From contig CAYSUJ010000002.1 of the NCBI GenBank assembly GCA_964434285.1, forward strand, positions 57,913 through 121,912: a stretch of 64,000 nt of DNA, read 5' to 3'. The notes under the pieces are model-generated. The model was not told the origin of the DNA and ran no database searches. It saw nothing but the letters and a program-made list of their open reading frames with translations. This DNA comes from an uncultured Candidatus Saccharibacteria bacterium (GTDB taxonomy: Bacteria; Patescibacteriota; Minisyncoccia; Phycocordibacterales; UBA2100). Positions 1 through 61,702 of this stretch are shown here, in pieces; the first letter of the stretch is position 1; each line of letters begins with the position of its first letter. Position numbers and translations under genes: made by a program.

Positions 1-6
1 GTGAAT

Positions 7-282
7 ATGAAAAATCCCGGATGGATTTTAGGCCTTCTCCTAATCGCTGGTCTTTCTTTCTGGATTGCGTTGCCTCGCGAAGAAATGGGAGAGGTTCAAC
101 TAGACACGAGTTGCCTTACCGAAGTTTCTACCGAACGCCGCTCTACCAATACGTTCTTCAAGACTTTTACCTGCTACGACCACGTTGGAACGAGGCAATG
201 CTACTACTTCAAGACCGAAAACGGTGTCTGCGTAAAGCTTTATAGGTACTGGTTCAACCTTGATGGCAGTCCGACCAAGTAG
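7..282 (+). CDS. small hypothetical protein with N-terminal hydrophobic signal/anchor (MKNPGWILGLLLIAGLSFWIAL)
   Basis: ORF track 1..282 begins with GTG at position 1, so it may be truncated by the window edge. The internal ATG at 7 gives a signal-peptide-like N-terminus. I recognise no family. Confidence 0.25.
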   Translation: MKNPGWILGLLLIAGLSFWIALPREEMGEVQLDTSCLTEVSTERRSTNTFFKTFTCYDHVGTRQCYYFKTENGVCVKLYRYWFNLDGSPTK

Positions 283-405
283 CTCACATTCCTCGGACGA
301 CCAGATACCAAACTACCCCTTCAGTGGGGCGAGGTTGGATTGCGAAACCCATAAAACGGCTAAAAACCTAGATTTTTCATTTTTATATTTCCAACTTTGT
401 ATATA

Positions 406-1578
406 ATGTTCTACATGGATACTAGGCCGACAGTGATAGATATATTCAGTGGTTGTGGTGGAATGTCATGGGGATTGCATAAGTCAGGATTCAAAGTTAT
501 TGCTGGCATTGATAACTGGGAGATTGCTCTTGAGACTTTTGCAGCAAATCACCCTGACGCAAGGGTGTACCACGAGGACATTAGAAAATTGTCGCCAGAG
601 CAGATAATGAATGACCTCGGAATTGAGCAGGGAGAGCTTGATTGTCTGGTTGGTGGACCTCCGTGCCAAGGATTTTCAAAGAACGTTCCCGCCTCATACA
701 GATATTTGGAAGACCCTCGAAATCAACTTTTCCGAGACTATCTCACTTATGTAGAAGCCCTACTACCTAAGACTTTGGTGATGGAAAACGTGGCAGAGAT
801 ATATAACGCATTCGATGGGAGCGTTAGAGATGAGATTGTCGCCAAACTAGAAAGTATGGGTTATGAAGTTGAGGTAAGAGTTGTACATGTTCCCGATTAC
901 GGAGTTCCTCAAAGGAGACGCCGATGTCTTTTCTTCGCTTCCAGAACTGGGGTTAGACCCTTTTTCCCATCAGCAACTCATGCGAAAGCAGAGACACTTC
1001 TGCAGAAGAAGTTTGTCTCTGCGTGGGATGCAATATCTGACCTCCCATCAATTGAACACGGAGCTGGTACGGATGAAATGAAATATGCCTGCAATCCGAA
1101 GAACGAATATCAAGCAACGATGAGAGCAAACTCTAAAAAAGTGCTCAACCACAAGAGCCGAGCATTGAAAGATAAGCAGTACAAACGGATGGCCTCTCTA
1201 AAAGCGGGTCAAGCTCATAAGGATTTACCGCCTGAGCTTAGACCCAAAGCTGGCTATAGCGGAGCATACGGCAGACTCGACTTTGAAATGCTCGCCCCCA
1301 CCATTACACGTTGGGTTTTCCACCCAGGCTCAGGACGCTTTGGGCATCCAAAAGATATCCGCACCATTACCATGAGAGAGGCCGCACGGCTCCACTCTTT
1401 CACGGACGACTTTAGATTCTTGGGTAGCTACACAGAACAGGCGGGACAAATCGGAAACGCAGTACCCCCTCTTCTTATGACGACGCTGGCACCAGTTATT
1501 CTGACATGTCTAGCTTCGCCGAAATATAATCTATCGTTTCAGACAGCGGGAGACGCTTTGGAGAAAGCTCGAAAATAA
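406..1578 (+). CDS. DNA (cytosine-5)-methyltransferase
   Basis: Classic C5-MTase motifs are visible: IDIFSGCGG (motif I), GGPPCQGFS (PC catalytic motif IV), ENV (motif VI), QRRRR and GNAVPP (motif X). The ORF track starts at TTG 397; ATG 406 or ATG 415 is the likelier start. A TATAAT hexamer sits at 401-406. Confidence 0.9.
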   Translation: MFYMDTRPTVIDIFSGCGGMSWGLHKSGFKVIAGIDNWEIALETFAANHPDARVYHEDIRKLSPEQIMNDLGIEQGELDCLVGGPPCQGFSKNVPASYRYLEDPRNQLFRDYLTYVEALLPKTLVMENVAEIYNAFDGSVRDEIVAKLESMGYEVEVRVVHVPDYGVPQRRRRCLFFASRTGVRPFFPSATHAKAETLLQKKFVSAWDAISDLPSIEHGAGTDEMKYACNPKNEYQATMRANSKKVLNHKSRALKDKQYKRMASLKAGQAHKDLPPELRPKAGYSGAYGRLDFEMLAPTITRWVFHPGSGRFGHPKDIRTITMREAARLHSFTDDFRFLGSYTEQAGQIGNAVPPLLMTTLAPVILTCLASPKYNLSFQTAGDALEKARK

Positions 1579-2254
1579 ATGCCTTGTCGGTTAGTCGAAA
1601 TCTCTCGAACAGTTGCTTTTGGTTTGGATACCAACGGAAGGCGACGAATCTATCGGCCTTCCTAATCCCCTGAAGACCTGTTTTGGTTTTGTCTGTCCAG
1701 TGCCATTCCAGTTCTTCTGGCTTGTAGTAAGCAACGTCCTCTTCGACGTACGCATACTTATTGCGGTCTGGAGACTTTATCAAAATGCAGACCCGCTTAT
1801 CATCAACACCCTGTATCTGTGCATCTTTTTCCACTTTCTCTTGATACCAGTGCTTCAAAAGCGCCTTGCCCAAGTCAGCGGGCTTACTGTCTTTTGTCAG
1901 CGTCTTGAACCCAAGAGCTTCGGCCTTCTTAAAAATGTCAGCACGCTGAATGACTAACTCGAACTCGAATGGGGTGTTTGATATCGGCCATTGGACTGCT
2001 TTACCCGACCATCCGATTCTATTCTTGGTATCTATGACATCGAACAACCGCTTGCTTCGGATGGAGGTGAGTGGGTCAATGAGCTCCACCCGCTTTGTAT
2101 AGGCAAAGACTGCTTCCCAGATATAGTCCTCCAAGTCGTCGATGAATGGCAAAGCCATCACTGCGGCGATGGCCTTCTTGAGACGGGCTTGCTCCTCCTT
2201 GTTTAGTGAATAGTGCACATCGGGAAGGATATATGAAATGAGATACTTTTTCAA
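1496..2254 (-). CDS. putative restriction endonuclease partner of the C5-MTase (unrecognised family)
   Basis: A 252-aa ORF convergent with the MTase, overlapping its 3' end by 83 nt. Its lower GC matches the MTase. I cannot confirm a clean PD-(D/E)xK motif, so the call rests on context only. Confidence 0.3.
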   Translation of the reverse strand: MKKYLISYILPDVHYSLNKEEQARLKKAIAAVMALPFIDDLEDYIWEAVFAYTKRVELIDPLTSIRSKRLFDVIDTKNRIGWSGKAVQWPISNTPFEFELVIQRADIFKKAEALGFKTLTKDSKPADLGKALLKHWYQEKVEKDAQIQGVDDKRVCILIKSPDRNKYAYVEEDVAYYKPEELEWHWTDKTKTGLQGIRKADRFVAFRWYPNQKQLFERFRLTDKAFIFELSPKRLPLSETIDYISAKLDMSE

Positions 2255-2496
2255 AGACTGGTTTACTTACGAGAGTGAAAGTAATAATATGCCTCTACAC
2301 AACCAATATTGAGCCGCAAGGCTAGTGCCTAAACCATTTGCTTCGGCGGGTGGCATGGCATGAAATCGTTGAGGATAGAAAACCCGTCATTCAGGGCGTC
2401 CTCAACGTTGCGGAGGGAAACTTCCGTAGGGGCCTAAAAACCCTCCTGGTGGCGGGCTTTGTGTTTGCCACCGGATTACAAACGTAATTCGGATAC

Positions 2497-3084
2497 ATGA
2501 AAAGATTACTGAAATTGGCGGCAATTACAGCAGGTAGTTTTACAGGCATTTGTTTATTCATTCTCGGCTGGATATTACTCGGCGCAACGGTTGGTTTTCT
2601 CTGGTCGCTCGCCATCGTAAGCGCCTTGCTTCTTGTTGCCGCATTCGCGCTAAATCAGTTTGCTCAAACAGGGAAAGCAAAGAATGCCGGAAGGAAGATT
2701 GCCACCGCAGTCTTTAGCGTCCTGGCAATCGTCGGAATCACATACTCGGGAGCTTGGTTGATTGGCGGCGCTGAAAATAACGGCAACGATGACACTCAGG
2801 TTGAGGAGAAGGTCATGGTTGAATTCGACAGCATTAGAGCGTGGCAGTCCGTCCAGAACGATGTGAAAAACCAGTTGAAAGCTCCGTCAACCGCAAAACT
2901 ATCGAGCTACGGAAACTCTACGGTCAAGAAGCATGCAACGGAGCCAAACACGTACGTCATCCGGGGATATGTCGACGCTCAAAACAGCTTCGGAGCGATG
3001 CTTCGTCAAGAATATGTTGCAACCGTCGTGTTCTTCCCCAATGGAGGCACGTATCTCCCCATAGACATCCAGTTCATCCAATAA
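2497..3084 (+). CDS. hypothetical membrane protein (2-3 predicted TM helices at the N-terminus)
   Basis: Long hydrophobic segments are present (LAAITAGSFTGICLFILGWILLGATVGFLWSLAIVSALLLVAAFAL). There is an RBS-like ggatac upstream of the ATG. Confidence 0.4.
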   Translation: MKRLLKLAAITAGSFTGICLFILGWILLGATVGFLWSLAIVSALLLVAAFALNQFAQTGKAKNAGRKIATAVFSVLAIVGITYSGAWLIGGAENNGNDDTQVEEKVMVEFDSIRAWQSVQNDVKNQLKAPSTAKLSSYGNSTVKKHATEPNTYVIRGYVDAQNSFGAMLRQEYVATVVFFPNGGTYLPIDIQFIQ

Positions 3085-3445
3085 CCTACGGCTGGGGACA
3101 GAGATGTCCTCAGGGAGTTCTGAGATTGGTTGAGGGAAACGAAAAGCTAAAGGATATAGGTTTCCATTATCCTCCGACAATCCGCACCCTGCGGACAATA
3201 TCACCACACAAACTTTCATTGAATAAAAGGCCCTTCATGGTGTATGCTCTCCATACAACTAAATAACCTTCCGGAGGTACCGTAGAGGATCGTTTTTGAA
3301 CCTCGCTTTTTGTCCTCCGAAAGAAGCATTGCTTCCGTACGCGGAGACTTCTTTCGGATTGCAGAAGCGAGTTTTCGTTTTGGCAGTCGGAGCAATCTTC
3401 TCCTTACACATACTAGGGACGGCAATCCGTCCGACCAATGAAGCC

Positions 3446-3895
3446 ATGGATACTTCCACGGTACAAAAGAAGGCGAATACCCAGATATGGGAGCCTCTTT
3501 TTCAGCTTCTCCTCGGAGAGGAGTCCAGCGCCTCCGACAAGGAGCGCATTAGCCGCCTTTCTCAAGAGGCGGCGCAGATTAGCAGCTTTGTAAAGACCGT
3601 CCAGTCATACCCCCACGAATACGAATGGTGGTGGGACAAATTGAGTCCTAGCGAAAGAGTGGTCCTCGGTTTTCTTCTCAGCGAAATCGCTGGCTCGGGA
3701 GAAACGAGGCGTGCAATCACGGCTCACGAGCTGGAATCTGCAACCGACCTAGGACAGCCTGAGATTCGTGAGGCAACCAGACGACTCACGTCCTTGAGAC
3801 TTATAAGGGTGCTACGAGCAACCCCAGGGACGGATGTATACGTCCTGTCGCTTTACGACGAGGACGATGGTGCCTTAACCCCTAGCAAACTATGA
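3446..3895 (+). CDS. hypothetical winged-helix DNA-binding protein (WW-motif paralog 1)
   Basis: Has a YEWWWDKLSPSERVVLGFLL motif followed by a C-terminal wHTH-like segment. ORF track 3296..3895; ATG 3446 (MDTSTVQ) is the more plausible start. Its stop overlaps the next gene start (ATGA at 3892). Confidence 0.35.
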   Translation: MDTSTVQKKANTQIWEPLFQLLLGEESSASDKERISRLSQEAAQISSFVKTVQSYPHEYEWWWDKLSPSERVVLGFLLSEIAGSGETRRAITAHELESATDLGQPEIREATRRLTSLRLIRVLRATPGTDVYVLSLYDEDDGALTPSKL

Positions 3896-4626
3896 GGTTC
3901 AAAATAAAAAATGGTGAATTCACTGGATTCACCGGAGAAGACATGTCGGTCTTCTTCAAATATCCAAGAGTCTTGGAGTTCTGGTGGGGCGGTCTCAGCG
4001 GCAGTGAACACAAGGTCCTTGATTTCATTCTCCGCCAACTCATCGGGTTCCAGAAGGATGCTGATGCCATCTCTCTCGACCAGTTCACGAAAGGCATTGG
4101 GAAAAACAATCGAGGCACTGGACTTAGCGAATCGCAGGTGCGTCGAGCCGTAAAAAACCTGGAACTCAAAGGTTTCATCGAAGTCGAAAGACGTCGGTTT
4201 GGGCCGAGCATATTCAGAATCCGCTTTGCGGAAGGCGTTATCGTAGACGGGCAAGGTAATACCACAACGATTCCACAGAAAGACGTTCGTGATGTCATTG
4301 AACGCTTCCGAACAATCGATTCTGGGAATATCGAAAAAATCCTCAAAGACAAGCGTCAGTTCGCAGCCATGACACGCGTCATGACAAAATACGGACCCCT
4401 AGAGGCAGAGTGGCTCGTATGCGCCCTTCAGTTCACACGAGGAAAGGAAAACGCCCCGAGCATTGCTTCGCCGCTTGAACTCGAGAGCAAGCTACCGAAT
4501 CTAGTCGGATACATCAAAAAGCAGGCGGAGAAGTTTCCTCGCTCTGTGGTGAGCCTAGAACTCGGTGTGAACGTTGTCGGGAAAAAGCACCAAAACGCGA
4601 AACCAAGTCTCGAATTCCTAAATTAG
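3892..4626 (+). CDS. hypothetical winged-helix DNA-binding protein (WW-motif paralog 2), possible element replication/regulatory protein
   Basis: LEFWWGGLSGSEHKVLDFIL parallels the motif in the upstream gene. A wHTH-like stretch (LSESQVRRAVKNLELKGFIEVER) follows. It is translationally coupled to the upstream paralog. Confidence 0.4.
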   Translation: MRFKIKNGEFTGFTGEDMSVFFKYPRVLEFWWGGLSGSEHKVLDFILRQLIGFQKDADAISLDQFTKGIGKNNRGTGLSESQVRRAVKNLELKGFIEVERRRFGPSIFRIRFAEGVIVDGQGNTTTIPQKDVRDVIERFRTIDSGNIEKILKDKRQFAAMTRVMTKYGPLEAEWLVCALQFTRGKENAPSIASPLELESKLPNLVGYIKKQAEKFPRSVVSLELGVNVVGKKHQNAKPSLEFLN

Positions 4627-5087
4627 GTACCACCGGTCATCATGACACCGGGGTGTTCAAAAGTGATACGGAGGGGTATCAAAAAGAACACTCGACTGGT
4701 GTTCATAGTGAAACCCACAATAGAGAATAAATACCAAAAGAGGTATTTACAAGAATGGTTTTCTGGAGAGGAAGAGGTCTGGAAGAGTAAAGAGAATGAC
4801 TCTGCTCATCCCTCCAGAAGACCGCTTGTAAACATTCACTAATGTACAACAGTTGGAACTTGTTATACCTATATTCTAAGCCATATTTTGCAGTTCTCAC
4901 TGCATAATCGGCTTCCAGAAATATATGGATATCGAATCTCTCAAGGACTACTTCATCGCCGACCAGATACAGCGTATCGAATTACTCACACGAGACGAGC
5001 TAGTCCGTGAACTTATCTCAATCAAATCAGCGGAGCTGGAAGCCATGACCCCTCACGACCTTCTGAGGCTCTGCGAGACAAAAAAAT

Positions 5088-6866
5088 ATGGAAACTGACA
5101 CCATTACACCAATCACCGAGGAAACCACACAACCAGAACAAAAACAGAGGCGAGCCGCCTTATATCTGCGCGTCTCGACCGACGAGCAGGCAAAAGAAGG
5201 TTTTAGCTTAGAACTTCAGGAGGAAAAGGGGCGCGGCTACTGCAAGCTCCATGAACACGCTCTGGCAGAGAAACACATTTACAAGGACGACATCTCTGGC
5301 ACGTTTGAAGCTGAAAGGCGCCCAGGTCTAGGTATGCTTTTCGAGGCCGCGAGGAACGGAGAGTTTGACGTTGTTGTCATCTATAAGATTGACCGACTAG
5401 CCCGCAGTCTTCTGGTCCTCAAGAACACCATACACGAACTGGAGAAGCTCGGAATCGGTCTCAAGTCCGTCATGGAACAGTTCGATACGCAAACGCCGAT
5501 AGGACGAACGAACGTAAATATCCTCGGCACCTTCGCTGAATTCGAGAGAGACCAAATCCGGGACCGGACAATGGGAGGGAGAATGCGAGCAATGGAGATG
5601 GGACGATGGGTCGGCATTACTCCATACGGGTATACCAAGGACAAGGAGACACGTAAGCTCGTGGTGAACGAAAAGGAGGCGAGGGTCGTGAGAAAAATAT
5701 ACGGTTGGCTCGTGAACGAACAACTGTCCCTCAGAGAAGTTGAGAGACGCATGAATCGCTTGAAGATACCTGCTCCGTTCTCCTCAAAAATAACGAAGCG
5801 GGAAACGCAGAATTACTGGCACAAGCGGACGATAGGACGCATCTTAACCAACGAAGTATTCACAGGGCGTTTCTGCTATCGCAAGTACAAGCGTCCATTC
5901 AATAATCTGACGAGCATCACCGAATCGAGCAAACTACGACCTCAAAAAGAGTGGATATGCATAGAAACACCCCCGATTATCTCGCCGGAAATGTTCAAGG
6001 CGGCAAAACAGCAACTCCTAAGAAACCGCGAATTCGCAAAGCGGAAACTTAAGAACATGTATCTGTACTCAAAGATAGTCAGATGCGGACGATGTGGATT
6101 CAAGATGTTCGGCGGATTCCAGCCGCCTCGCGGGAAGTGGAACTACCCTGGAGGATACTACTATCACGGCATTTATCGTGAGAAAGACGCCGCAGGAAAA
6201 AGTAAACGCTGTGCGTGGTGTCCGAATTACTCCGAGGCAAGAATGGAGCCGATTTGGGAATGTCTAAGGGATATCTTGAAGAATCCGGCAAACATCATGA
6301 CCCCCCTCGAAAGATATGTACGCAAGGGAGAAGACCCTCATGTAATCACAGGACGTTTAGCTGAGATACACGAGACGTTGGAAAACCTTGGCCAGAAACG
6401 AATCAGAGCCAACGAACTCTACATTGCGAACAAAATAAAGAAAGAAGAGCTCAACAATTACTACCGAGACTACGACAAGGAGGAAAAGATACTGAACGAT
6501 GAGGCCCTGAAGCTCCGTCAGAGTCTTCTCGGGAAGGAAGAAATCGCAGACCAGAAGCGAGCGATAGAGGGGGCATATAAGCGGATACAGACGAAACTGG
6601 ACGAGACCACCCGCAGTGAGAAAGCGAAAATAATTCACATGTTCGTCGAGAGCATCACCCTCCATGCTACGGAGAACTACGCAGAGGTGGTATGCAAGTT
6701 TCCTAGCAACACGGAAACCAGAAATCCCCGTGCAGAGAGGCAAGGTCTAGGTGTGAACGGCACTGTTCCTCTCGTGCTGAGAGTAAACACAATCCCGGAA
6801 GAAGACAGACGAGCGTACATGCTCAAAACAAACCCTGGTATGTACGTCCCGAAGTCCCTGATTTAG
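5088..6866 (+). CDS. large serine recombinase (phage/ICE integrase type)
   Basis: N-terminal resolvase catalytic domain (ALYLRVSTDEQ, IYKIDRLARS), a recombinase domain, and a Cys cluster for a zinc ribbon (CGRCGF...CAWCP) with a coiled-coil C-terminus. 592 aa. Confidence 0.9.
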   Translation: METDTITPITEETTQPEQKQRRAALYLRVSTDEQAKEGFSLELQEEKGRGYCKLHEHALAEKHIYKDDISGTFEAERRPGLGMLFEAARNGEFDVVVIYKIDRLARSLLVLKNTIHELEKLGIGLKSVMEQFDTQTPIGRTNVNILGTFAEFERDQIRDRTMGGRMRAMEMGRWVGITPYGYTKDKETRKLVVNEKEARVVRKIYGWLVNEQLSLREVERRMNRLKIPAPFSSKITKRETQNYWHKRTIGRILTNEVFTGRFCYRKYKRPFNNLTSITESSKLRPQKEWICIETPPIISPEMFKAAKQQLLRNREFAKRKLKNMYLYSKIVRCGRCGFKMFGGFQPPRGKWNYPGGYYYHGIYREKDAAGKSKRCAWCPNYSEARMEPIWECLRDILKNPANIMTPLERYVRKGEDPHVITGRLAEIHETLENLGQKRIRANELYIANKIKKEELNNYYRDYDKEEKILNDEALKLRQSLLGKEEIADQKRAIEGAYKRIQTKLDETTRSEKAKIIHMFVESITLHATENYAEVVCKFPSNTETRNPRAERQGLGVNGTVPLVLRVNTIPEEDRRAYMLKTNPGMYVPKSLI

Positions 6867-6959
6867 CTCGGGAGAGGTAAGAATTATTGAAACAAGGCCA
6901 CAAACTCACGTTGTGAGGCTGTTTAGTGTTGTCCACCGCAAAGGCCCTTCGGGCAAATA

Positions 6960-7640
6960 GTGACAACAATGGTGTTCGAAAAGTATTACGACGTATTACA
7001 GGTGTATATTTTTTCCAAACCTACCTTCCTAGACGAGTTTCCTGAATTTCATCGTGATGTGATTCAGGCGCTTCGCGAACCGCTCGAGGATGGCGTGGTA
7101 TCTATTGCTCGCTCAAAAGCCTCCGCGGTATACCCGGCGAACTTTCTCCTTATTGCTGCACTGAATCCATGTCCCTGCGGCTTCTGGGGGAGTGGGAGGT
7201 GTGAATGCATGCCACATGCGATCGAGAAATACCGCCGGAAGATCTCGGGACCTATCGCGGATCGCATCGACATGTGGGTAACAGTCGGCGAGATGCCGCT
7301 CTCCATGCTCTCTACAAAGGCGAAACGCGCGTCGGGGGAAACAGTGGCAGCTCGCGAAGCAATCACGCGCGCTCGCGCCACGCAGGGTAAGCGCTTTATA
7401 GGGAGCGGCCGCGTGCACACAAACGCCGACATGAAAGCGCGCGATATAGAAGCCCATGCTCTGCTTGAAAACGACGCGGAGAAAGCCTTACAGGAAGCCG
7501 CCGAGCGTCTCAAACTCTCCGCCCGCGGCTACCACCGCACTATCAAGCTCGCCCGCACAATTGCCGATCTTGCCGAATCGGAGACTATACAAACATCACA
7601 CATGCTCGAAGCACTCCAATACCGCGCTCGCGAAATTTAA
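6960..7640 (+). pseudogene. comM: 3' fragment of comM/yifB (Mg-chelatase-like AAA+ competence protein), truncated at the element junction
   Basis: Homology begins at the Walker-B-like TFLDEFPEF and continues through the conserved ComM C-terminus (ALREPLEDG, NPCPCGFWG, ISGPIADRIDMW, LSARGYHRTIKLARTIADL). The ~280 N-terminal residues (Lon-like and Walker A) are missing. Confidence 0.75.
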
Positions 7641-7693
7641 ATAAAAAAGCGAAACAATAAAATAATCTGTACTAAAAACGGGGTGTTCATAGT

Positions 7694-8764
7694 TTAGAAC
7701 GGGTTTCGTGGACCACCACGGATCTCGAAGTGGAGGTGTGCGCCCGTTGAGCGACCACTGTTACCAACGCGAGCAATCGTCTCACCCTGACTCACATACT
7801 GGCCAACACTCACCAGTACGGCCGATGCATGAGCATAGAGTGTCTGTGTACCGTTAGGGTGACGGATGACGACATACGAACCATACCCTCCGTTCCATCC
7901 ACCTTGACGGGCCACAATCACGTCCCCAGATGCGGCTGCGACTATTGGCGTGCCGACGGGAGCGCCTATGTCGACACCGTTGTACCCGTGAATACCTTGG
8001 GTACGGACACCGCTCGTAGGGCGCATGTAATACCCAGCATATGAGGGAGATGGCGCGCCGAGCGGTGCGGCTTTGCGGATTGGCGCGGGGGCGATGATTT
8101 CACCATTTGGAATGATGATTTCAGAACCAACAGCAAGCTCTCCCTCCGCAAGACCGTTAAACTGGGCGATTTCCTCACTATCCCCCTGATACTTCTTTGC
8201 GATCGAGGCGAGCGTGTCTCCTGATTTGACCTTGTACTTAAGTCCGCTCACCGGAAGAATGGTTAATGTGTCACCCTTCTTGATAGAGGTTGCTCGCGGA
8301 AGGTCGTTTGCCCAGAGGATAGTATTCACCGAAACATCAAACATCTCGGCAACCTGGGAAAGAGTGTCCCCTTCACGCACAACATACAAGCTGATGGTCG
8401 CATTCTTAGGTTTCCCTATGTCAGCGATCGTGCCCGATGGCCCATCTTCGGCTATCACAGCACTTTCGTCGAGGATGGTCACCTCGCCACCACCTTTTGC
8501 AGGGATAGAGCTGGCGCTTGCCTCGGCAAGCGGCATAGACTGCACGGTAACCACGCGGTTCGATGACGACGCCTCTGCCTTTGAGCCAAAAAAAGATTGA
8601 AGCTCAAAGGAAAAGGCCCGAGCGGAAAGTGGGACAGCAGAGACCACTGATCCGATGAGGCAAAGGATTGAAATAACACCAAATACTCCGTTCCTGCGAA
8701 GTGTTCTTTTTTGTTTCATTTCCTGGGTTTTTTGAGATTTCCCAGAAAAGTCCTGATCGTGCAA
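7694..8764 (-). CDS. LysM-domain M23 family metallopeptidase (peptidoglycan hydrolase)
   Basis: Two LysM repeats (GDTLSQVAEMF...ILWANDL, GDTLASIAKKY) and a C-terminal M23 signature (GVDIGAPVGTPIVAAASG...YGSYVVIRH...HLHFEI). N-terminal TM anchor. Confidence 0.85.
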   Translation of the reverse strand: MHDQDFSGKSQKTQEMKQKRTLRRNGVFGVISILCLIGSVVSAVPLSARAFSFELQSFFGSKAEASSSNRVVTVQSMPLAEASASSIPAKGGGEVTILDESAVIAEDGPSGTIADIGKPKNATISLYVVREGDTLSQVAEMFDVSVNTILWANDLPRATSIKKGDTLTILPVSGLKYKVKSGDTLASIAKKYQGDSEEIAQFNGLAEGELAVGSEIIIPNGEIIAPAPIRKAAPLGAPSPSYAGYYMRPTSGVRTQGIHGYNGVDIGAPVGTPIVAAASGDVIVARQGGWNGGYGSYVVIRHPNGTQTLYAHASAVLVSVGQYVSQGETIARVGNSGRSTGAHLHFEIRGGPRNPF

Positions 8765-8977
8765 TGTTATAAGCCAACGTAAACGATTCGCCTGCTACAG
8801 GAGCCTAAGAGGGTGTTTCCCTAGATACCTCTAGAAATCCGAGCTTTTGAGCCGTTTTTGGGGTGGGAGCAGAGCGTCTTCAGAAAATATGGCTCTAAAC
8901 AAAGCTTTTATAGAGAGCCGAATCAAGCGGTATACCACCTCATGGGTAACGGTAGCTCGCGGAGGGGGTGCGAGTCA

Positions 8978-10963
8978 ATGAAAAAAACATTAAGGGAGTG
9001 GATAGCAAAAGTGTCAATTTTGGTGAGTTCACCATGGTATAGTGCCCCCGTGAATCATCTTTCGGGTCTCAACGATCGGCAAAAAGAAGCCGCCGAGCAT
9101 CTCGAAGGACCTCTCCTCATCGTGGCGGGAGCTGGTGCAGGAAAGACAAAGACTATTACGCACCGAATCGCTCACCTTATAGAGCAGGGGGCCCGTCCGG
9201 ACTGTATCCTCGCCGTTACCTTCACCAATAAGGCCGCTGCCGAGATGCGATCCCGAGCGCTTACACTCTTGGGGCTCGAGTCAAGCCTTTCATCCTTCTC
9301 ATCGCGCTCGCCGCGGATGACCACCTTTCACTCCCTTGGAGTGCAGATTTTGCGTGAACACGCGGGAACCTCCACTATTCCCGCCTCGTTTAACATCTGG
9401 GATCGAGACGACAGTACTCGCCTCATCAAGCGCATCCTTACTGAACGAGGACTCGAACGATTCACTCCACGCGCCGTTCTCGGACGCATATCGCGGGAAA
9501 AGGGTAAGGCACAGACGGTCGCAAGTTTCACCGAAAGCGCGCATTCTTTCGAGACTGAAGAAATTGCGGAGGTGTGGCGTCGCTATGAAGAAGGTCTTCG
9601 TCATGAGGGCGCACTCGACTTTGATGACCTCCTCCTCCACACACTCCTGCTTCTCCGGGAAAACGCCGTGGTTCGCGAGAAACTTCGTGAACGATGGCAG
9701 CATCTCACGATTGATGAATACCAAGACACAAACCGCGTGCAGTATGAGATTGCCCGCATACTTGCCGGCGAGCGGATGAATATCTGCGCCGTAGGAGATA
9801 TCGATCAAAATATCTACAGCTGGCGAGGAGCAGATCCACGTTACACACTTTCATTTGAGCGCGATTTTCCGAATGCGAAAGTGATTCTGCTCGAAGAGAA
9901 CTACCGATCGACGCAAACCATTCTCTCCGCAGCAAACGCAGTTATCGCAAAAAATACACGACGTTTTGAAAAACGACTCTTCACGGGAAATCCGACGGGC
10001 GAAGCGATCACTCTCTACGCTGGCGCGAGCGATAGGGAAGAGGCAATGTTTGTGGCGCGCACAACGCGCGAACTCCTTGGAAGCGGAGTTCTCGCGTCGG
10101 AAGTCGCAGTTCTCTTCCGTGAAAACTTCCAATCGCGCGCACTTGAGGAGGCATTCATCTGGGCCGGAATCCCGTATCGCGTGCTCGGCGTACGATTCTT
10201 TGACCGCGCCGAAGTGAAAGATGTGCTTGCCTACGTACGCGCCGCACTGAATCCGCGCGCCCTGACCGACTTTGCTCGTGCGGCAGGCACTCCCACACGC
10301 GGTATAGGAAAACAAACGCTCGAGAAAATTGCGCGGGGCGAGGATGCAGCGCTCTCCGGCGCCGCACGAGCAAAAGTGGATGGGTTCCGCGGATTACTAG
10401 GAAAAATTCGTACCGCACTCCTCGAAAAAACCGCCTCCGAGGCGCTTCGATACACCGCTCTGGAGAGCGGCATCGAGCGACTTCTTGCCGAGGACGACGA
10501 CGAGGCGCGCGAACGACTCACGAACATATTCGAACTCATTTCCCACGCCATGCGGTATGACGAACTCCCTGCGCCACAAGGAATAGAGAAACTCCTCGAA
10601 GATGCGGCGCTTATGGGCGAGCAAGATGCACTCCAAGATTCGCGCGAACGCCCCGTGTCCCTCATGACGGTTCACGCAGCAAAGGGCCTTGAGTTTGACG
10701 CGGTCTTTGTGACCGGCCTTGAACAAGGCCTCTTTCCCTCCGAGCGCGCAAACGACACCGAGCGCGATGACGAAGAGGAACGCCGACTCTTCTATGTTGC
10801 ACTCACGCGCGCGAAGAAACACTTGTATCTTACGCTCGCCGGCGCGCGCATGAAATATGGTTCCCGCGAGCACACCATTCCTTCGTCGTTCCTGCACGAC
10901 ATCGATGAGCGCCTCATCACATACGCCGATTCGCGTGCGTTTGAACCAACTATAGAATTATGA
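8978..10963 (+). CDS. pcrA: ATP-dependent DNA helicase PcrA/UvrD family
   Basis: Walker A AGAGAGKTKT; helicase motifs TFTNKAAAEM, TIDEYQDTN, VGDIDQNIYSWRGA, TVHAAKGLEFD. Start moved to ATG 8978 (MKKTLREW), which is preceded by a GGAGG RBS. ORF track start is 8858. Confidence 0.85.
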   Translation: MKKTLREWIAKVSILVSSPWYSAPVNHLSGLNDRQKEAAEHLEGPLLIVAGAGAGKTKTITHRIAHLIEQGARPDCILAVTFTNKAAAEMRSRALTLLGLESSLSSFSSRSPRMTTFHSLGVQILREHAGTSTIPASFNIWDRDDSTRLIKRILTERGLERFTPRAVLGRISREKGKAQTVASFTESAHSFETEEIAEVWRRYEEGLRHEGALDFDDLLLHTLLLLRENAVVREKLRERWQHLTIDEYQDTNRVQYEIARILAGERMNICAVGDIDQNIYSWRGADPRYTLSFERDFPNAKVILLEENYRSTQTILSAANAVIAKNTRRFEKRLFTGNPTGEAITLYAGASDREEAMFVARTTRELLGSGVLASEVAVLFRENFQSRALEEAFIWAGIPYRVLGVRFFDRAEVKDVLAYVRAALNPRALTDFARAAGTPTRGIGKQTLEKIARGEDAALSGAARAKVDGFRGLLGKIRTALLEKTASEALRYTALESGIERLLAEDDDEARERLTNIFELISHAMRYDELPAPQGIEKLLEDAALMGEQDALQDSRERPVSLMTVHAAKGLEFDAVFVTGLEQGLFPSERANDTERDDEEERRLFYVALTRAKKHLYLTLAGARMKYGSREHTIPSSFLHDIDERLITYADSRAFEPTIEL

Positions 10964-11739
10964 GACGCGGCGCACGCTTAGGACAGCATTTCTTGAACGC
11001 GGATTGGGTGGCTCGTGATCTAACGAAAAGCGTTGCCGTTCGGACAGGAGAGGCAATCCTCGAAATCGGTCCCGGCACCGGGGTACTGACTCGCCATCTG
11101 CTTGCGACCGGCGCACATGTAATCGCCATAGAGAAAGACGAGATACTCGTTGAAAAACTTAACGAGACATTTGCTGATGAAATTGACTCGGGCACATTCA
11201 CTCTCTTCGAGGGAGATGTGCGAGACGTCACCCCAGATACATTCCAACTCCCCACTTCCTATGTGCTCGCAGCAAATATTCCCTACTACATAACCGGTGA
11301 GATTATCCGCCACTTCCTCACCTCACTCCATCAACCGCGCGCGGCCGCTCTCTTGATCCAGAAAGAAGTGGCTGAACGTATTGTCGCTCGCGACGGCAAG
11401 GAAAGCATCCTCTCTCTTTCGGTCAAAGCCTATGGCAAGCCACGAATCGTGGCAAAAGTACCGGCAGGATGTTTTAATCCACCCCCATCAGTAGATTCCG
11501 CAATTATTCTTATTGACGATATATCCCGTGATTTCTTCGAAATAATACAGGAAGACGTCTTTTTCAGAATCGTGAAAGCCGGTTTTGCATCCAAGCGAAA
11601 AATGCTTGCGGGGAATTTGAAGGGTGTCACGTCACATGCGGGCGAAGTTTTGAAAGAAGCTGGGCTACCCGAAAAAGTGCGAGCTGAGGATGTTGATTTA
11701 GGGGGGTGGAGGAGGGTAGTTGAAAGATTGCAAAAGTAA
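10960..11739 (+). CDS. rsmA: 16S rRNA (adenine1518/1519-N6)-dimethyltransferase
   Basis: GQHFL start motif, SAM-binding LEIGPGTGVLT, NIPY motif. 259 aa. Start overlaps the pcrA stop. Confidence 0.85.
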   Translation: MRRGARLGQHFLNADWVARDLTKSVAVRTGEAILEIGPGTGVLTRHLLATGAHVIAIEKDEILVEKLNETFADEIDSGTFTLFEGDVRDVTPDTFQLPTSYVLAANIPYYITGEIIRHFLTSLHQPRAAALLIQKEVAERIVARDGKESILSLSVKAYGKPRIVAKVPAGCFNPPPSVDSAIILIDDISRDFFEIIQEDVFFRIVKAGFASKRKMLAGNLKGVTSHAGEVLKEAGLPEKVRAEDVDLGGWRRVVERLQK

Positions 11740-11852
11740 ATTTTTACTGACTCGCTCACAACTCTCGGCTCGCCGACGCTCGCCTCGGTCGCGAGCCCAG
11801 CTCGCGGTTCGGCCTTCTGTCCTCACAACGCTCCGCTCGAGTTCCCAAGAAA

Positions 11853-11878
11853 AAATCAGTGCTCAAGCACTGATTTTT
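11853..11878. terminator. bidirectional intrinsic terminator (perfect hairpin atcagtgct-caa-agcactgat flanked by A-run and T-run)
   Basis: Sequence gaaaaaatcagtgctcaagcactgatttttatt lies directly downstream of rsmA and of the minus-strand ORF ending at 11877. Confidence 0.6.
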
Positions 11879-12203
11879 ATTGGGAACTCCCCATCATATC
11901 TATATTGACGCCGGAATCGACTTGGATTGGGGCGAGAGACCAGACGCAATAATAGGGAGCACTTGCGAGACCAAGGAGCCACTGGCCGGTGCGACGCGGA
12001 GGACCGAACTGATAGGTGCGCGTCGCTGGCGTCCAGATGAAGGAGCCACCTCGCGGCCCTGATAGATACACCTGAATAGCGTTGTTGTAACAGGGACGAA
12101 CCATGGTGATCTGCCCACCAAACGGGAATGCATACGTTATATGAGGAATCGAGAGTGCGATCAGTAAACCCAAAGCAAAGACACGCATGTGCACAGTGTA
12201 CAT
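11877..12203 (-). CDS. small hypothetical secreted protein (signal peptide MRVFALGLLIALSIPHITYA)
   Basis: ORF ends exactly at the terminator hairpin and has an N-terminal signal-peptide-like segment. It overlaps the annotated N-terminal extension of the next plus-strand ORF, so only one of the two is likely real. Confidence 0.3.
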   Translation of the reverse strand: MYTVHMRVFALGLLIALSIPHITYAFPFGGQITMVRPCYNNAIQVYLSGPRGGSFIWTPATRTYQFGPPRRTGQWLLGLASAPYYCVWSLAPIQVDSGVNIDMMGSSQ

Positions 12204-12265
12204 CCTACGGCTTAGCCACAGCTATACTTACACACATGCTTCATGAGGGAGGGAACTATAACGAC

Positions 12266-13189
12266 ATGATAGGAACGCAAGCTCCCGAGATCGCCTCGAT
12301 TCCAAAAGTCGACGTAGAAATGCATAATTCTTGGATACAGCGTCATCCGTATGCGGCAGTCGCGATTGGCATCGGAGGAATCTTGATTCTCGGTGGCACG
12401 ATCGTGCTACAGCGTATGAGCGTCGCACCCACTCCTCAGAGCGGCTCGTGGGGAGGTGCCGGCGGTGCGTTTTTTGGCACGGTCAGAAATGCCACGCTTC
12501 TACACACTTCCCCCAACACAACCTCAAGCGGGGGCACCGACAATTATGCCGTCATTCCAATATACGACACTTCGTCGGGAGGAGAGGGAGTTACAGTGCC
12601 TGAAGGATTGGCCGAACTTCTTGCGCTCATTGTGCGCACAGACGATACGGGCACCACATCCACAGAAACCCCCAGCGCCTATTCATTCATCCCACAGGGG
12701 CTCGTGAGTGCTGAAAAACCCGCGAAACCACGGACACAGGCCCAGGATCGCCTGCACTCATACGGAAACGCAGTTGGCACGCTCGTGAAGCCGTTCGAAG
12801 ATAACGCACGCATCAATGCGCAAACACTCAAAAATCACACCGAGGATCGAAATAATCCGGAAAAAGCGGATCAACTTAACGCCCTCGCCCTCAATCTTGC
12901 GCAACTTGGCGTGGATATCTTGGCGACAACGGGCGTACCCGAGAGCGCCGCAGCAGCACATAAAGAATACGGCACCGCATATCGCATGCTTGGCACGCGC
13001 CTCGCGGCAATAACGAAAACACAGACGGATGAGGAGTTTTTAAATGCAATTGTGAGCTATAACACCGCTGCTGAGGAACTCACGAAGAAGTTTTTATTGC
13101 TGATTGCCATCTTTAATACTAACGAGATTACTTTTTCCTCATCAGAACCAGGCAGTATATTCATGTTTAGTGCGTCTGGGTCTCTCTAA
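12266..13189 (+). CDS. hypothetical membrane-anchored protein, first gene of the T4SS-like locus
   Basis: Single TM segment (AAVAIGIGGILILGGTIVLQ) then a Thr/Ser/Gly-rich region. No family recognised. ORF track starts at 12128; internal ATGs at 12266 and 12320 avoid the overlap with the minus ORF. Confidence 0.35.
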   Translation: MIGTQAPEIASIPKVDVEMHNSWIQRHPYAAVAIGIGGILILGGTIVLQRMSVAPTPQSGSWGGAGGAFFGTVRNATLLHTSPNTTSSGGTDNYAVIPIYDTSSGGEGVTVPEGLAELLALIVRTDDTGTTSTETPSAYSFIPQGLVSAEKPAKPRTQAQDRLHSYGNAVGTLVKPFEDNARINAQTLKNHTEDRNNPEKADQLNALALNLAQLGVDILATTGVPESAAAAHKEYGTAYRMLGTRLAAITKTQTDEEFLNAIVSYNTAAEELTKKFLLLIAIFNTNEITFSSSEPGSIFMFSASGSL

Positions 13190-13207
13190 GGGCGGTATAA
13201 TAGCGGG

Positions 13208-14050
13208 GTGAAAGCTCGTTTCTCCCGCGGCGCCTCTCCCATCGCTGTTGTCGCAGCGCTCTCTGTCGCGATACTTATTGCCACCATTGGCTCGGAATTA
13301 GGCGAGCGCTTGCGCCCTGCGCCCGTGCGTGAGGTGCAGGAGCCCTCACAAGCACGGGCGTATGTCCCCATAACGGACGCCGATGGCGATGGCGTACCCG
13401 ACTGGCAGGAGGAATTCTTTGGCGCGAACGCCTCTTCAACGGTCGCGTCTTCAACCGTACCGAGCGACCCGGTGGAAGCCTTTGGCGGCGCCGTCATGCA
13501 GTCACTTGTTTCTGGCTATCTCTCACTTAAAGAATATGATCAATACACGCCCGAACGGGGAGAGATCCTCGCCGAACGCCTTGCTGCGGAAATGAAGGCG
13601 CCCGTCATCTTCGTCCCCCACACGGAATCCGAACTCACCCTCGTTGCAGAGACCGGTGAGGCACAACTTTTACGCTACCGAAGCGATATGCGTGAAGCAC
13701 TTGCGCCAATGGTCGATCTCTCTGCGGAGCCTGAATTTTCACTCTATGCGCGTTATGTCGCGACGAACGATGTGGCATGGCTCGATAAGCTCTCTGAAAC
13801 CGCAGCACGATACCGTGCGGCCGAATCAGCCGCGCTCCAGGTCGAAGTACCCATGAGCGCGAAGGAGGTACATCTCCGCGCCGTGAACGCCCTTGGAAAG
13901 TATACGGAGACCTTGGAGCGACTTGTCCGCTTTGCGGACGACCCGATAGCCTCATTGGTGCTTTTGAGAACGTATAATGAAGATGAGCGAGAATTCCTTC
14001 TCGCGTTTGATGTATTGGCAAAATTTTATGTTGAGAACATTGAGAAATAG
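13208..14050 (+). CDS. hypothetical secreted/anchored protein (T4SS-like locus)
   Basis: N-terminal hydrophobic anchor (IAVVAALSVAILIATIG). 280 aa. No family recognised. Confidence 0.4.
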   Translation: MKARFSRGASPIAVVAALSVAILIATIGSELGERLRPAPVREVQEPSQARAYVPITDADGDGVPDWQEEFFGANASSTVASSTVPSDPVEAFGGAVMQSLVSGYLSLKEYDQYTPERGEILAERLAAEMKAPVIFVPHTESELTLVAETGEAQLLRYRSDMREALAPMVDLSAEPEFSLYARYVATNDVAWLDKLSETAARYRAAESAALQVEVPMSAKEVHLRAVNALGKYTETLERLVRFADDPIASLVLLRTYNEDEREFLLAFDVLAKFYVENIEK

Positions 14051-15635
14051 TGCACATACGTTAAAGCTTCTTCTTGGCTTCTCTCTTTTACTCTGCACAC
14101 CTTTTACGGCGCATGGCCAAGCTCAGCCAAATCCAAATAATCCTAATCTGATAAACAGCACGCCACAACAAATCGCTGCATCTTCAACACTCTCTAACGA
14201 CGGAATCTTCGGCTGTCGCGGCGTCGGTGCGCAAGTCGCTAATGTAGGAACACAAACAGCAATTGGAGGCGTGTACGTTCCCGTCAACGACGCTGCTGTG
14301 ACACTTAATACAGGATTTTTGGTATATAAGGAATGTATTCTTGATGGTGTCGCACGCAAAATCGCCGAAAATGTCTCGGCGGAGTATCTCAACCAAAGCT
14401 ACCGAGCCTTCAGTCGCGGTCGCGGCGGAAATCCGCAGTATGTGACGAATATTGGGGAAGAAATGCGACGCCAGGGAAATATTATTGTCGTAAACGCACT
14501 CCAGGGCACCTATCAAAACGCTCTTTGTCCAGCATTTAAAAATACGGTGGTAGGGGGCTATGCACGACAGTTCGTACGCTCTCAAAACTCACCAGCGTCT
14601 ACCATAACCTGCAGTCTACCGACAAACCAAGATAACTATTGGGAGACTCTTGCCGCGTTCAGGGAACGCCAAAATTACCCGTACGGTGCATACCAAATAC
14701 TCGAAACCCAACTCGACGCTACTCTTGCATATAATGAAAGAAATCAACGAGAGCGCTGGGGGTGGAACAGGGGCGTCTATGATGCGGTTGATACCATTGA
14801 CAACCCATTGAATGCACGTGTGATCACCCCCGGATTTCTTATTGCTGATTCAATATCTCAGCTCAGCGGTTCCGGCTTCCGCCAGCTTGAGAATGCGAAT
14901 GAAATTGATCAAGTGGTAGGAAACCTCTTCGGCGGACTCACCACGCAACTCATTTCCGACACCCGGGGGCTTGAGGGTCTAGCGCAATCCGTAAACGGCC
15001 AACCGTCATATCTCGACCGCATGACAGCGCAAACTTCAGCAAATGTGCGTCAGCAGGCGACAAACGCCGCCCTCTCCATCATCAGTTCCGCACGCCAGAT
15101 CGAGGTGAACTACCGCACTGCAAAAGAAGCGATTGCAACAGGGTTAAGTAACGCAATCGAGCAATTGCGCTCTGCCGAGCGCCAGTGTTGGGATCTCATC
15201 ATCCCGGCCGTACAAACCTACGCTACGGGACAGGGAGTCTCACAACTAAACATTGCGACGTCGACGCAATTCTCTCAACAAATTATTGATTCGCAGATTG
15301 CACCACTTGCAACAACAACCATTAATGAGATCCGCGCATCAGACACCACCATTGGCGCTTTGAACGAACTCATATCCAGCGTGTCCAACAGCGCCTCCCA
15401 AGCAAATCAGCAACAAGCACTCCTGCGCCTCGACACACTGGTTGCAAACGGCCAGCTCCGCACCGCACAAGACGCGACGAACGCCGCGCAACAGCGTGAC
15501 AATGTGCTCGGCGCGCTTACCACGCTGGTAACAGACACCGTAAAGGGCTGGGGGGATAGTCCTGATCCTAATATCGGTTGGTGTAACGTCAACAACACTG
15601 CGGTAGTCGAGCGGTGGTTCAATGCATGGAAATAA
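14028..15635 (+). CDS. hypothetical secreted protein (T4SS-like locus)
   Basis: Signal peptide LKLLLGFSLLLCTPFTAHGQA, rich in Q/N/A/T. About 535 aa from ATG 14028. ORF track start is 13977. Confidence 0.4.
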   Translation: MLRTLRNSAHTLKLLLGFSLLLCTPFTAHGQAQPNPNNPNLINSTPQQIAASSTLSNDGIFGCRGVGAQVANVGTQTAIGGVYVPVNDAAVTLNTGFLVYKECILDGVARKIAENVSAEYLNQSYRAFSRGRGGNPQYVTNIGEEMRRQGNIIVVNALQGTYQNALCPAFKNTVVGGYARQFVRSQNSPASTITCSLPTNQDNYWETLAAFRERQNYPYGAYQILETQLDATLAYNERNQRERWGWNRGVYDAVDTIDNPLNARVITPGFLIADSISQLSGSGFRQLENANEIDQVVGNLFGGLTTQLISDTRGLEGLAQSVNGQPSYLDRMTAQTSANVRQQATNAALSIISSARQIEVNYRTAKEAIATGLSNAIEQLRSAERQCWDLIIPAVQTYATGQGVSQLNIATSTQFSQQIIDSQIAPLATTTINEIRASDTTIGALNELISSVSNSASQANQQQALLRLDTLVANGQLRTAQDATNAAQQRDNVLGALTTLVTDTVKGWGDSPDPNIGWCNVNNTAVVERWFNAWK

Positions 15636-17826: not shown

Positions 17827-17828
17827 GA

Positions 17829-18398
17829 ATGAGTATGGATGTAAACAAAGACTTTAAAGAAGCCCTTGCCCAGCGATTTAAGGAACTTCCCGCGCCGGTG
17901 CAGCAAGCCATAACATCGAGTGACATTGAGAAACGATTGCGCGAACTCGCCACCCAGCACCGACTTCACGTCGATCAATGGGATGCACTTGAAAATGAGG
18001 TTATGCTTGCCTTGCTTGGATTTGAACATCCGCAGGATCTTGAGAAAAACTTACGCAGTGCGCTTGGTGTAAGCGGCGAGACTGTGCAACATGTCGCACA
18101 AGATATAAACAGGATAGTATTCGAACCAATTCGCGAGGAGCTTGAGCGCCAGCTCGAACACCCACGGGCACAGGAAAAACAGCTCACAGGTGCCGAGGAA
18201 GCGCGGGAACAGCTCTTAAGGGGACAAAAAGCGAGTGACGCACCCCCTGTAACAACCCCTCCCGCCCCAACACCCCCCGCACCAAAAACAGATGCGACGG
18301 TGGCGCGTGCGCCCACGTCCGGCGCTTACAAACCCGGCGAAACTTCAATGGTGCGTAAATCAGTTGCTGACGACCCATATCGTGAATTGCCACAGTAA
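17829..18398 (+). CDS. hypothetical protein with Pro/Ala/Thr-rich C-terminus (T4SS-like locus)
   Basis: 189 aa, no family recognised. Tightly packed after the previous gene, 2-nt gap. Confidence 0.3.
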   Translation: MSMDVNKDFKEALAQRFKELPAPVQQAITSSDIEKRLRELATQHRLHVDQWDALENEVMLALLGFEHPQDLEKNLRSALGVSGETVQHVAQDINRIVFEPIREELERQLEHPRAQEKQLTGAEEAREQLLRGQKASDAPPVTTPPAPTPPAPKTDATVARAPTSGAYKPGETSMVRKSVADDPYRELPQ

Positions 18399-40432: not shown

Positions 40433-40437
40433 CTGTA

Positions 40438-61696: not shown

Positions 61697-61702
61697 ATTT
61701 TT

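Follow-up and report, generated by a model that had tools for sequence, protein, structure and literature searches.

The window analysed here, a stretch of 64,000 nucleotides from an uncultured Candidatus Saccharibacteria bacterium (assembly GCA_964434285.1, contig CAYSUJ010000002.1, positions 57,913 to 121,912 of the forward strand), contains most of a mobile element that interrupts the gene comM. Our data argue strongly that this element, 9,574 bp long in its integrated form, was inserted into comM by its own large serine recombinase (LSR) at the dinucleotide CT of the codon for Leu305, and that the family to which it belongs uses arrays of element-borne attachment sites (attP) with several different cores. 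The original prediction, made from the letters of the window alone, had likewise placed a serine-recombinase element in comM, and it is now supported by the 5' half of the gene, by both junctions and by the recurrence of the arrangement in a whole family of elements.

The interrupted gene can be rebuilt in full. An exact-protein look-up of the recombinase led to a 67.5-kb contig (L001), which is identical to the window across 16,866 bp (L001 coordinate = window + 4913) and reaches 4,913 bp farther upstream; exact-protein look-ups with open reading frame (ORF) versions of the methylase and of the comM fragment returned no match because the gene caller chose other start codons. In the window, the ORF at 6960-7640 covers positions 111-202 of the 207 of the Pfam Mg_chelatase profile together with Mg_chelatase_C, and therefore represents the C-terminal 40% of a ComM/YifB protein (204 of 508 residues), where a third had been predicted. 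The abrupt start of the similarity had been recognised correctly, but it had been put around 7015: genuine comM sequence begins at the Leu codon CTA at 7029-7031, and the preceding 22 codons of the ORF are derived from the element. The 3' fragment of comM (7029..7640, + strand) thus comprises codons 305-508 and the stop, with the Walker B Asp-Glu, the remaining AAA+ region and the C-terminal domains, and residues 305-508 of the rebuilt ComM match the window at 100% in a tblastn search. No intact comM continues upstream of it in frame. The 5' fragment and the left attachment site (attL), which an extension of the window had been expected to uncover, lie on the same contig outside the window: the fragment occupies L001 1453-2370, 9.6 kb upstream of the 3' part, contains ChlI and Mg_chelatase profile positions 2-114, and ends with ...LAHRGILFL, after which unrelated sequence follows. 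The rebuilt ComM accordingly finds its two halves at L001 1453-2376 and 11939-12550 (tblastn), and the Pfam matches of the halves (2-114 and 111-202) abut.

When joined at the common CTA, the halves abut exactly and give an in-frame ComM of 508 amino acids, and neither of them has internal stops. Residues 22-504 of this protein align to the solved ComM structure 8rxd (E 1e-108), without a gap across LAHRGILFLDEFPEF, and the combined halves show the complete ComM architecture: a ChlI/Lon-like N-terminal domain, an Mg_chelatase AAA+ core with Walker A and Walker B, and Mg_chelatase_C. The insertion leaves Walker A in the 5' fragment, separated from Walker B, the sensor region and the arginine finger, all of which belong to the 3' fragment.

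The two junctions fix the point of strand exchange. attL reads ...ggcatactttttCTAaaaaaatgtttgc (in short form ...ctttttCTAaaaaaa) and the right attachment site attR, at 7011-7040 of the window, reads ttttccaaacctaccttcCTAgacgagttt (short form ...accttcCTAgacgag); since the bases flanking CTA differ between the two, strand exchange was limited to CTA. The attB (host site) rebuilt for this locus is ...CACCGCGGCATACTTTTTCTAGACGAGTTTCCTGAATTT... and the rebuilt attP of the element is ...TTTTTTCCAAACCTACCTTCCTAAAAAAATGTTTGCTAAATC.... Five elements for which both junctions were available, this one included, served for an analysis of overlap and dyad symmetry. Their attL/attR overlaps are CTA (window), TTCT, TTCCT, TTT and TTA, and the sole register common to all five consists of the first two positions of the codon that precedes the Walker B Asp. 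In each of the five, the rebuilt attP is a pseudo-palindrome of the form ATTTGYRGGACA-N6-[core]-N6-TGTCCYRCAAAT centred on that very dinucleotide, with 11-15 of 22 dyad matches (shuffle p 0.0001-0.04). The core is CT at CTN host codons, as in the window, and TT at TTR host codons. In the window the crossover (central) dinucleotide CT is found at 7029..7030 (+ strand), as bases 1-2 of the comM Leu305 codon, a codon for the hydrophobic residue directly before the Walker B Asp-Glu. The arm of attR that stems from the element (P arm), TTTTCCAAACCTACCTTC, occupies 7011..7028 (+ strand); it fits the half-site consensus of the family, ATTTGYRGGACA-N6, with identical spacing and is dyad-related to the arm right of attL (11 of 22 matches, shuffle p 0.04).

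It is this arm at 7011-7028 together with CT at 7029-7030, and not the hairpins pointed out in the original prediction, that forms the recombination site. The palindrome ctcacgttgtgag, which had been assigned to 6925-6945, in fact lies at 6905-6917 and is terminator-like, and neither it nor the hairpin GCCC-TTC-GGGC (6943-6953) is att-like in a scan with the weight matrix described below. The stretch 6911-6943 was also considered as a decayed second attP and was dropped, as its spacing is 5 nt short and its matrix scores are low.

The recombinase gene (5088..6866, + strand) encodes 592 amino acids, as predicted, with a Resolvase domain (E 1.5e-34, residues 23-174) and a Recombinase domain (E 1.9e-17); a match to Zn_ribbon_recom stays below the threshold (17.5 bits; the cut-off is 25.3). 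The gene stops 163 bp short of the junction, a distance that had been estimated at about 150 bp. Alignment A1 of the family shows no variation in residues R28, S30, T31, E33 and Q34 of the catalytic motif YxRVSTxxQ or in the cysteine quartet C333/C336/C375/C378. The protein is 40-52% identical to the recombinases of other comM-splitting elements, all of which form one clade with mutual identities of 39-93%. In the INPHARED phage collection no integrase exceeds 28% identity to it, and the family is absent from IMG/VR, where all matches but one are at or below 38% (L035, 43%) and none adjoins comM. The window LSR is the probable catalyst of the recombination of attP with attB at comM.

The same event has recurred in many other genomes, and all relatives known to us here derive from metagenome assemblies. 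Many of the closest homologues of the 3' fragment are proteins of about 200 amino acids on long contigs, in which unrelated residues are followed by LDEFPEF. All four truncated comM genes that were looked up (L003, L005, L006, L007) are preceded by an LSR-bearing element, and their comM match starts at residue 303-306. A scan of one genome per species succeeded with alignment A1 of four recombinases as query, whereas a single recombinase had found no match; each of the ten loci recovered has the recombinase next to a comM that is interrupted at residues 303-307. Their hosts are Kaiserbacteria, Zambryskibacteria, Nomurabacteria, Buchananbacteria and other metagenome-assembled genomes of Patescibacteria; the ten include a 2.1-kb contig with the label Firestonebacteria and a locus from the same genome as L006. 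A metagenome scan yielded 32 further relatives, half of which (16/32) have a comM fragment broken near residue 305; in the remaining 16 no comM was seen, and the flank beyond the recombinase is short in most of them. The independent insertions are fewer than the loci, because L005 equals L116 and L006 equals L008 (same contig or genome), and L009 and L102/L113, as well as L012 and L115, are probably duplicates, given that their site and comM-match coordinates coincide.

The elements of which both ends are present are 6.1-14 kb long. Among 13 elements compared, the shared backbone consists of the recombinase (13/13), a RepO-like protein (8/13), a small ORF preceding the recombinase (7/13), a membrane protein (6/13) and XRE- and S24-type regulators, and the cargo across the family comprises mainly methylases and restriction enzymes. 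As judged from these sequences, the elements constitute a family spread through the Patescibacteria whose recombinases appear all to target one site in comM.

Several members depart from the common organisation. In L007 the recombinase (8078-9860) is split into ORFs of 366 and 235 amino acids, which suggests a decaying copy; this 9.7-kb element carries Dcm, an NgoFVII-type restriction endonuclease and a Z1 domain protein. On L116 (the contig of L005) comM is split by a 14-kb composite (4354-18375) with two extra intact CT-core sites (13450 and 15227), an S-adenosylmethionine synthetase and a UvrD helicase, and it may be made up of several elements, or of cargo modules, that were linked at att sites. 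In L015, L016 and L121 the recombinase ORF extends through the attP array up to the junction, so that integration would alter its C-terminal residues.

The attP arrays became apparent with a position weight matrix (PWM) that was built from the 18-nt arms only, leaving out the core, and applied to 570 kb of family loci. It detected 26 intact two-armed sites, compared with 0-1 in shuffled controls. Their cores, which had no part in the detection, are CT (16), TT (5), AT (3), GT (1) and AC (1), and all 21 directional CT and TT cores are oriented as the recombinase gene. The sites stand in tandem, typically 46-72 bp apart, and adjoin the site that was used. Elements that used TT retain an intact CT site 51-72 bp inside attR (L010, L015, L016, L017, L100, L103, L119, L124), and those that used CT retain intact TT or AT sites 46-130 bp inside attL (L007, L013, L101); entire arrays are unrecombined in L008, L111 and L121. 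Close relatives differ in the member of the array that became the junction. This is CT in L009 and TT in L010, with an intact CT site 52 bp off, in elements whose LSRs are 93% identical; it is CT in L101, TT in L124 and AT in L105 (LSRs 83-87% identical); and it is CT in L012 as against TT in L100 and L103 (LSRs 84-86% identical). Nearly identical recombinases employ the core that agrees with the codon of the host.

Two insertions are inverted relative to comM. In L105 (13760-13900) the used arm equals the TT-site arm of L124 and the core is AT, and the inversion follows from the fact that a palindromic AT core cannot fix the orientation. In L011 (4480-4600 and 13740-13860) a CT site is joined in reverse, with a host codon AGT at one junction and AGG at the other; the reverse joining is explained by the complement of the host AGT, which carries CT. 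A mis-oriented recombination followed by mismatch repair was considered for L011 and dropped, the host AGT codon being the simpler account. Both cases fit an orientation set by the central dinucleotide alone.

The window element itself has a second palindrome 51 bp right of attL, TTTAGTGGTTCACCTTCT[GC]AAAAGGTGTACCGCAAAA, with 14 of 20 dyad matches and arms resembling those of the TT sites of L008, L010, L011 and L111. In the 21.8-kb locus only two right-arm matches score at least 13, and both lie within 143 bp of attL. The Kaiserbacteria locus L008 (CP066682.1, Candidatus Kaiserbacteria) shows an intact array CT-52 bp-TT-100 bp-AT at 200-410, 12 kb upstream of the comM 3' fragment. At its junction (12440-12500) the P arm and TT are followed by 14 extra bases (AACTTCTAGTTGCC) before GACGAG, the codon before the Asp is GCC, and no 5' fragment of comM is present within 12 kb; this locus could represent a tandem or composite element, or the use of a GC-core site.

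The host codon at the crossover point is itself highly variable. In the 119 full-length ComM proteins closest to that of the window (67-87% identity), the position preceding the Walker B Asp holds Ala in 58, Leu in 40, Thr in 10, Cys in 6, Val in 3 and Met in 2, and the entropy at residue 305 amounts to 1.8 bits in these related Patescibacteria, with nine residues on each side almost invariant. By comparison, all 119 of 119 ComM proteins of the Legionella group (75-97% identity) have Leu. The codons for Leu start with CT or TT, those for Met and Ile with AT, for Val with GT and for Ala with GC, and these dinucleotides match the cores of the well-formed array sites. We did not find an earlier description of such hypervariability of a host codon at a crossover point.

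Serine integrases do not read the core of their sites, and yet religation requires that both partners have the same core; a non-palindromic core determines the orientation of the product, and integration needs the integrase alone, while excision needs a directionality factor. Against this background, the circular element would integrate through the array site whose core equals the first two bases of host codon 305, and tandem alternative attP sites with similar arms and the cores CT, TT, AT, GT and GC would cope with variation in the host codon, palindromic cores (AT, GC) giving insertions in either orientation. ComM is the branch-migration helicase of natural transformation and, with Walker A split from Walker B, it should be inactive while the element is present. 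Excision at the same dinucleotide would restore comM exactly, perhaps by means of a 57-residue protein encoded ahead of the recombinase and under the control of an S24 repressor. The element would benefit by disabling a helicase that lets transformation replace heterologous DNA; that insertion into comM blocks the removal of an element by transformation has been proposed in Proteobacteria (PMC4774983, PMC11472951, PMC12378983).

Several observations weigh against this interpretation. The host codons before insertion are deduced from the junctions and were not observed as such, and all but three of the integrated copies sit in hosts with a Leu codon, the exceptions being L105 (ATN), L011 (AGT) and L008 (GCC). 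The use of non-Leu cores depends on L105 (AT) and L011 (reverse CT at AGT); the arm at the L008/L006 junction, with its host codon GCC, could not be assigned to any known site. By PWM, the left arm of the GC site in the window element is weak (3.4). In two other candidates, at L001 2511 (core AC) and 4461 (core TG), the arms are displaced by one base, and these were not counted for the Thr and Cys cores. The protein collection holds no empty-site comM allele of the window strain, the best intact ComM being 87% identical, and there is neither a circular form nor, in any complete contig, a terminal repeat, so that the mobility of the window copy is unproven.

The absence of both an empty site and a circle would also be expected if the window copy were an immobilised fossil, that is, a defence island fixed in comM in a lineage in which comM is a dead gene. 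The split recombinase of the related L007 and the 14-kb composite L116 would agree with such a fate. We nevertheless consider it rather unlikely, as every ORF of the window element is intact, the recombinase retains all residues that are invariant in the family, and the comM halves, which contain no stops, can be rejoined in frame. Moreover, two elements make up whole contigs, L099 (12,236 bp) and L101 (13,300 bp), with either end about 105-126 bp inside comM. Ends of this kind correspond to the overlap size of assembler k-mers and suggest that the samples concerned contain both filled and empty comM alleles; together with the unrecombined arrays of L111 and L121 they hint at present-day mobility in the family.

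The additional palindromes, on the other hand, could be accessory or regulatory binding sites of the recombinase, comparable to res subsites II and III, or operators. They are intergenic, lie 46-130 bp from the used site and near the end of the element; the GC site of the window has one weak arm, and two other sites are irregularly spaced; and small serine recombinases are well known to use multi-subsite res regions. Such a role is improbable as an explanation of the arrays, because different array members are the actual junction in close relatives (L009/L010, L101/L124/L105 and L012/L100/L103), because the array cores are limited to dinucleotides that start codons seen at ComM 305, and because the directional cores all share one orientation.

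Alternatively, the insertion might act as a reversible regulatory switch ('active lysogeny', as in the Listeria comK prophages) that restores comM when transformation is needed. A scarless excision would permit this, and the SOS-type S24 repressor and the small recombinase-coupled ORF, which could set directionality, would supply its control. However, no sign of excision or regulation emerged, and these observations are also compatible with a selfish element that protects itself from being removed by transformation (PMC4774983, PMC11472951); a switch is improbable. That comM is naturally split in this lineage, as the many 'ComM' proteins of about 200 residues in databases might suggest, or that the recombinase belongs to an unrelated neighbouring prophage, can be dismissed: full-length ComM of 508-527 amino acids is the norm among relatives, every truncated form that was examined follows an element with a homologous recombinase, homologues stand beside broken comM at 4/4, 10/10 and 16/32 loci, and the break always falls at residues 303-307.

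The right-hand 7.0 kb of the inserted element occupies 1..7028 of the window (+ strand), as delimited by the identity to L001, the comM halves, the G+C content and the gene content, and the left 2.5 kb (L001 2371-4913, upstream of the window) contains attL, the second attP-like site, a DUF2188-like gene, a LexA/CI-like S24 repressor, a gene for a SEC-C-motif protein and two small ORFs. With 0.44-0.52 up to about 7000, the G+C content of the element is below that of the flanking host DNA (0.53-0.59).

A Dcm-type cytosine-5 DNA methyltransferase is encoded at 397..1578 (+ strand; the gene caller puts its start at 415), with matches to Pfam DNA_methylase (E 1e-60), TIGR00675 dcm and PADLOC MTase_II (E 2e-104). 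Convergent with it and overlapping its 3' end, a gene at 1496..2254 (- strand) encodes a type II restriction endonuclease of 252 amino acids, which matches PADLOC PDLC03480 REase_II (E 3.7e-41, profile 3-223 of 249) and nothing in Pfam or NCBIfam. Both enzymes had been named in the original prediction, as had the two paralogous winged helix-turn-helix (wHTH) proteins, which share 29% identity (E 2e-9). By their matches and arrangement, the methylase and endonuclease qualify as a putative type II restriction-modification (R-M) system carried as cargo. The first wHTH paralogue of the RepO-like pair (3296..3895, + strand; start at 3446 according to the gene caller) falls into the same BLAST cluster as the second, a cluster represented in 8/13 elements. 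The second (3892..4626, + strand) is itself RepO-like, matching Pfam Phage_rep_O (E 1.8e-5, below the curated cut-off) and PHROG 678 'replication initiation O-like' (E 1e-9), and is a candidate replication initiator.

Between the endonuclease and the wHTH genes lies a LOOT RNA (Rfam RF03000; 2326..2444, + strand; 70 bits against a gathering score of 46.4), directly upstream of a gene for a 195-residue membrane protein (2497..3084, + strand). The latter is a backbone gene of the family, with homologues in 6/13 elements, and matches only PHROG families of unknown function. LOOT RNAs are also present in the related elements L007 (4689-4808), L016 (7434-7552) and L017 (6508-6628), and a second copy in the window (62274-62396, - strand) stands upstream of a gene for a 178-residue zinc-ribbon/membrane protein (61703-62239, - strand), a distant homologue of the 195-residue protein (24% identity, E 5e-7). 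A possible role of LOOT is that of a leader or small RNA linked to this membrane-protein gene family in mobile elements; the literature on it gave no functional information.

The 57-residue protein (4925..5098, + strand), whose stop overlaps the recombinase start by 11 nt, has homologues in the same position in 7/13 elements and no family match in PHROG, Pfam and NCBIfam searches; it is a candidate directionality factor or regulator. In some relatives this small ORF is swapped for a paralogue of 148-183 amino acids with the resolvase catalytic domain only (L005 1612-2064, L006 7462-7908, L010 9590-10141, L015 9980-10483), in which the position of the nucleophilic Ser is Gly in L005 and the motif is one residue shorter in L006; this paralogue may be a regulatory or directionality subunit. 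Downstream of the recombinase gene, the hairpin CTCAC-GTT-GTGAG (6905..6917, + strand), with a 5-bp stem, a 3-nt loop and a T-rich tail, looks like its terminator.

Among the ORFs of the element, searches of Pfam, PHROGs and NCBIfam revealed no capsid, terminase, portal, tail or lysis genes; there are likewise no relaxase, coupling protein or type IV secretion genes (an oriT was not searched for), and no TnsA/B/C-type transposition genes or target selector, nor a transposase in any library. With a repressor, RepO-like initiators, a recombinase with a small coupled ORF and R-M cargo, its gene content is not that of a complete phage. Its size (the class of about 10 kb), S24 repressor, RepO-like initiators and integrase would be compatible with a phage satellite similar to phage-inducible chromosomal islands; such satellites also bear genes that hijack the packaging of a helper phage, and here no packaging-related gene is recognisable and no helper phage is known.

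Elsewhere in the window, the region 56786-63704 (- strand) resembles a second mobile element, with HsdS and HsdM (type I R-M), an HTH_17 excisionase-like gene, a tyrosine integrase (60391-61323), a DUF488 gene, the second LOOT RNA and several small ORFs. Three tRNA genes on the + strand, tRNA-Lys(ttt) at 40359-40433, tRNA-Arg(gcg) at 44545-44617 and tRNA-Ser(tga) at 48185-48270, are unrelated to the comM insertion.

Serine-integrase elements that split developmental or competence genes include A118 and phi10403S in comK of Listeria and SPbeta and skin in Bacillus. They share with the element described here the precise insertion into a coding sequence by an LSR and a scarless restoration upon excision, but they have one attP and one target, whereas the family in Patescibacteria has several attP with different cores. 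Tandem arrays of recombinase-binding palindromes are likewise a feature of the res sites of Tn3 and gamma-delta resolvases; there, however, only subsite I exchanges strands, while in the comM family the member at the junction varies by host.

Insertions into comM have been described from other bacteria. The large serine recombinase of phage WO sr1WO enters a 'magnesium chelatase' gene of Wolbachia (PMC9203015), so that there, too, an LSR inserts a mobile element into a gene of the ComM/YifB family and leaves gene fragments on both sides. In contrast to the elements of 6-14 kb without structural genes found in Patescibacteria, WO sr1WO is a complete tailed prophage of an alphaproteobacterial host; no attP arrays have been described for it. 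In Proteobacteria, comM harbours the Tn7-like AbaR/AbGRI islands of Acinetobacter and tyrosine-integrase islands of Aggregatibacter, Mannheimia, Francisella and Pseudomonas (PMC4774983, PMC11472951, PMC12378983). These have the same target gene, often in the Mg-chelatase domain, often carry defence cargo and have been proposed to gain the same benefit, but they depend on a transposase or tyrosine integrase and inhabit other host phyla; Patescibacteria are absent from the lists of hosts of comM islands in the same three papers. Given the comM knock-outs known from Proteobacteria and Wolbachia, a single insertion is therefore the expected kind of event. As to the arrays, our literature search on natural attP arrays differing in the central dinucleotide yielded engineered orthogonal sites only, namely phiC31 or Bxb1 att sites made by changes of that dinucleotide (PMC3936721, PMC3642061). 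These laboratory constructs resemble the natural arrays in that products arise only between identical central dinucleotides and that a palindromic core loses control of orientation.

Our study thus reveals a coherent and widespread family of small, R-M-carrying integrative elements in the Patescibacteria, a group whose mobile elements are poorly described. A further outcome is a set of dozens of new recombinases for which attB/attP pairs are defined and which offer natural orthogonal cores; these are of practical interest for genome engineering. Several attP differing in the central dinucleotide constitute a route to a wider host range for which we found no earlier description, and the target gene belongs to the DNA-uptake pathway on which the reduced Patescibacteria are thought to depend. 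Since the host codon varies exactly at the crossover, a conflict between host and element is directly testable. As a tentative proposal, which we consider somewhat less likely than not, there may be an arms race over two base pairs, in which hosts evade integration through a change of codon and elements answer with arrays of attP with matching cores. The evidence consists of a correlation and one outgroup, and the sets of Patescibacteria and Legionella proteins differ somewhat in their range of divergence; an escape of hosts by codon change would account for Ala, Leu, Thr, Cys, Val and Met at this position in Patescibacteria as against the invariant Leu in Legionella. If this is true, the arms race would be a natural counterpart of the engineered orthogonal att sites, and a mobile element would be driving variation within the catalytic motif of an enzyme of its host.

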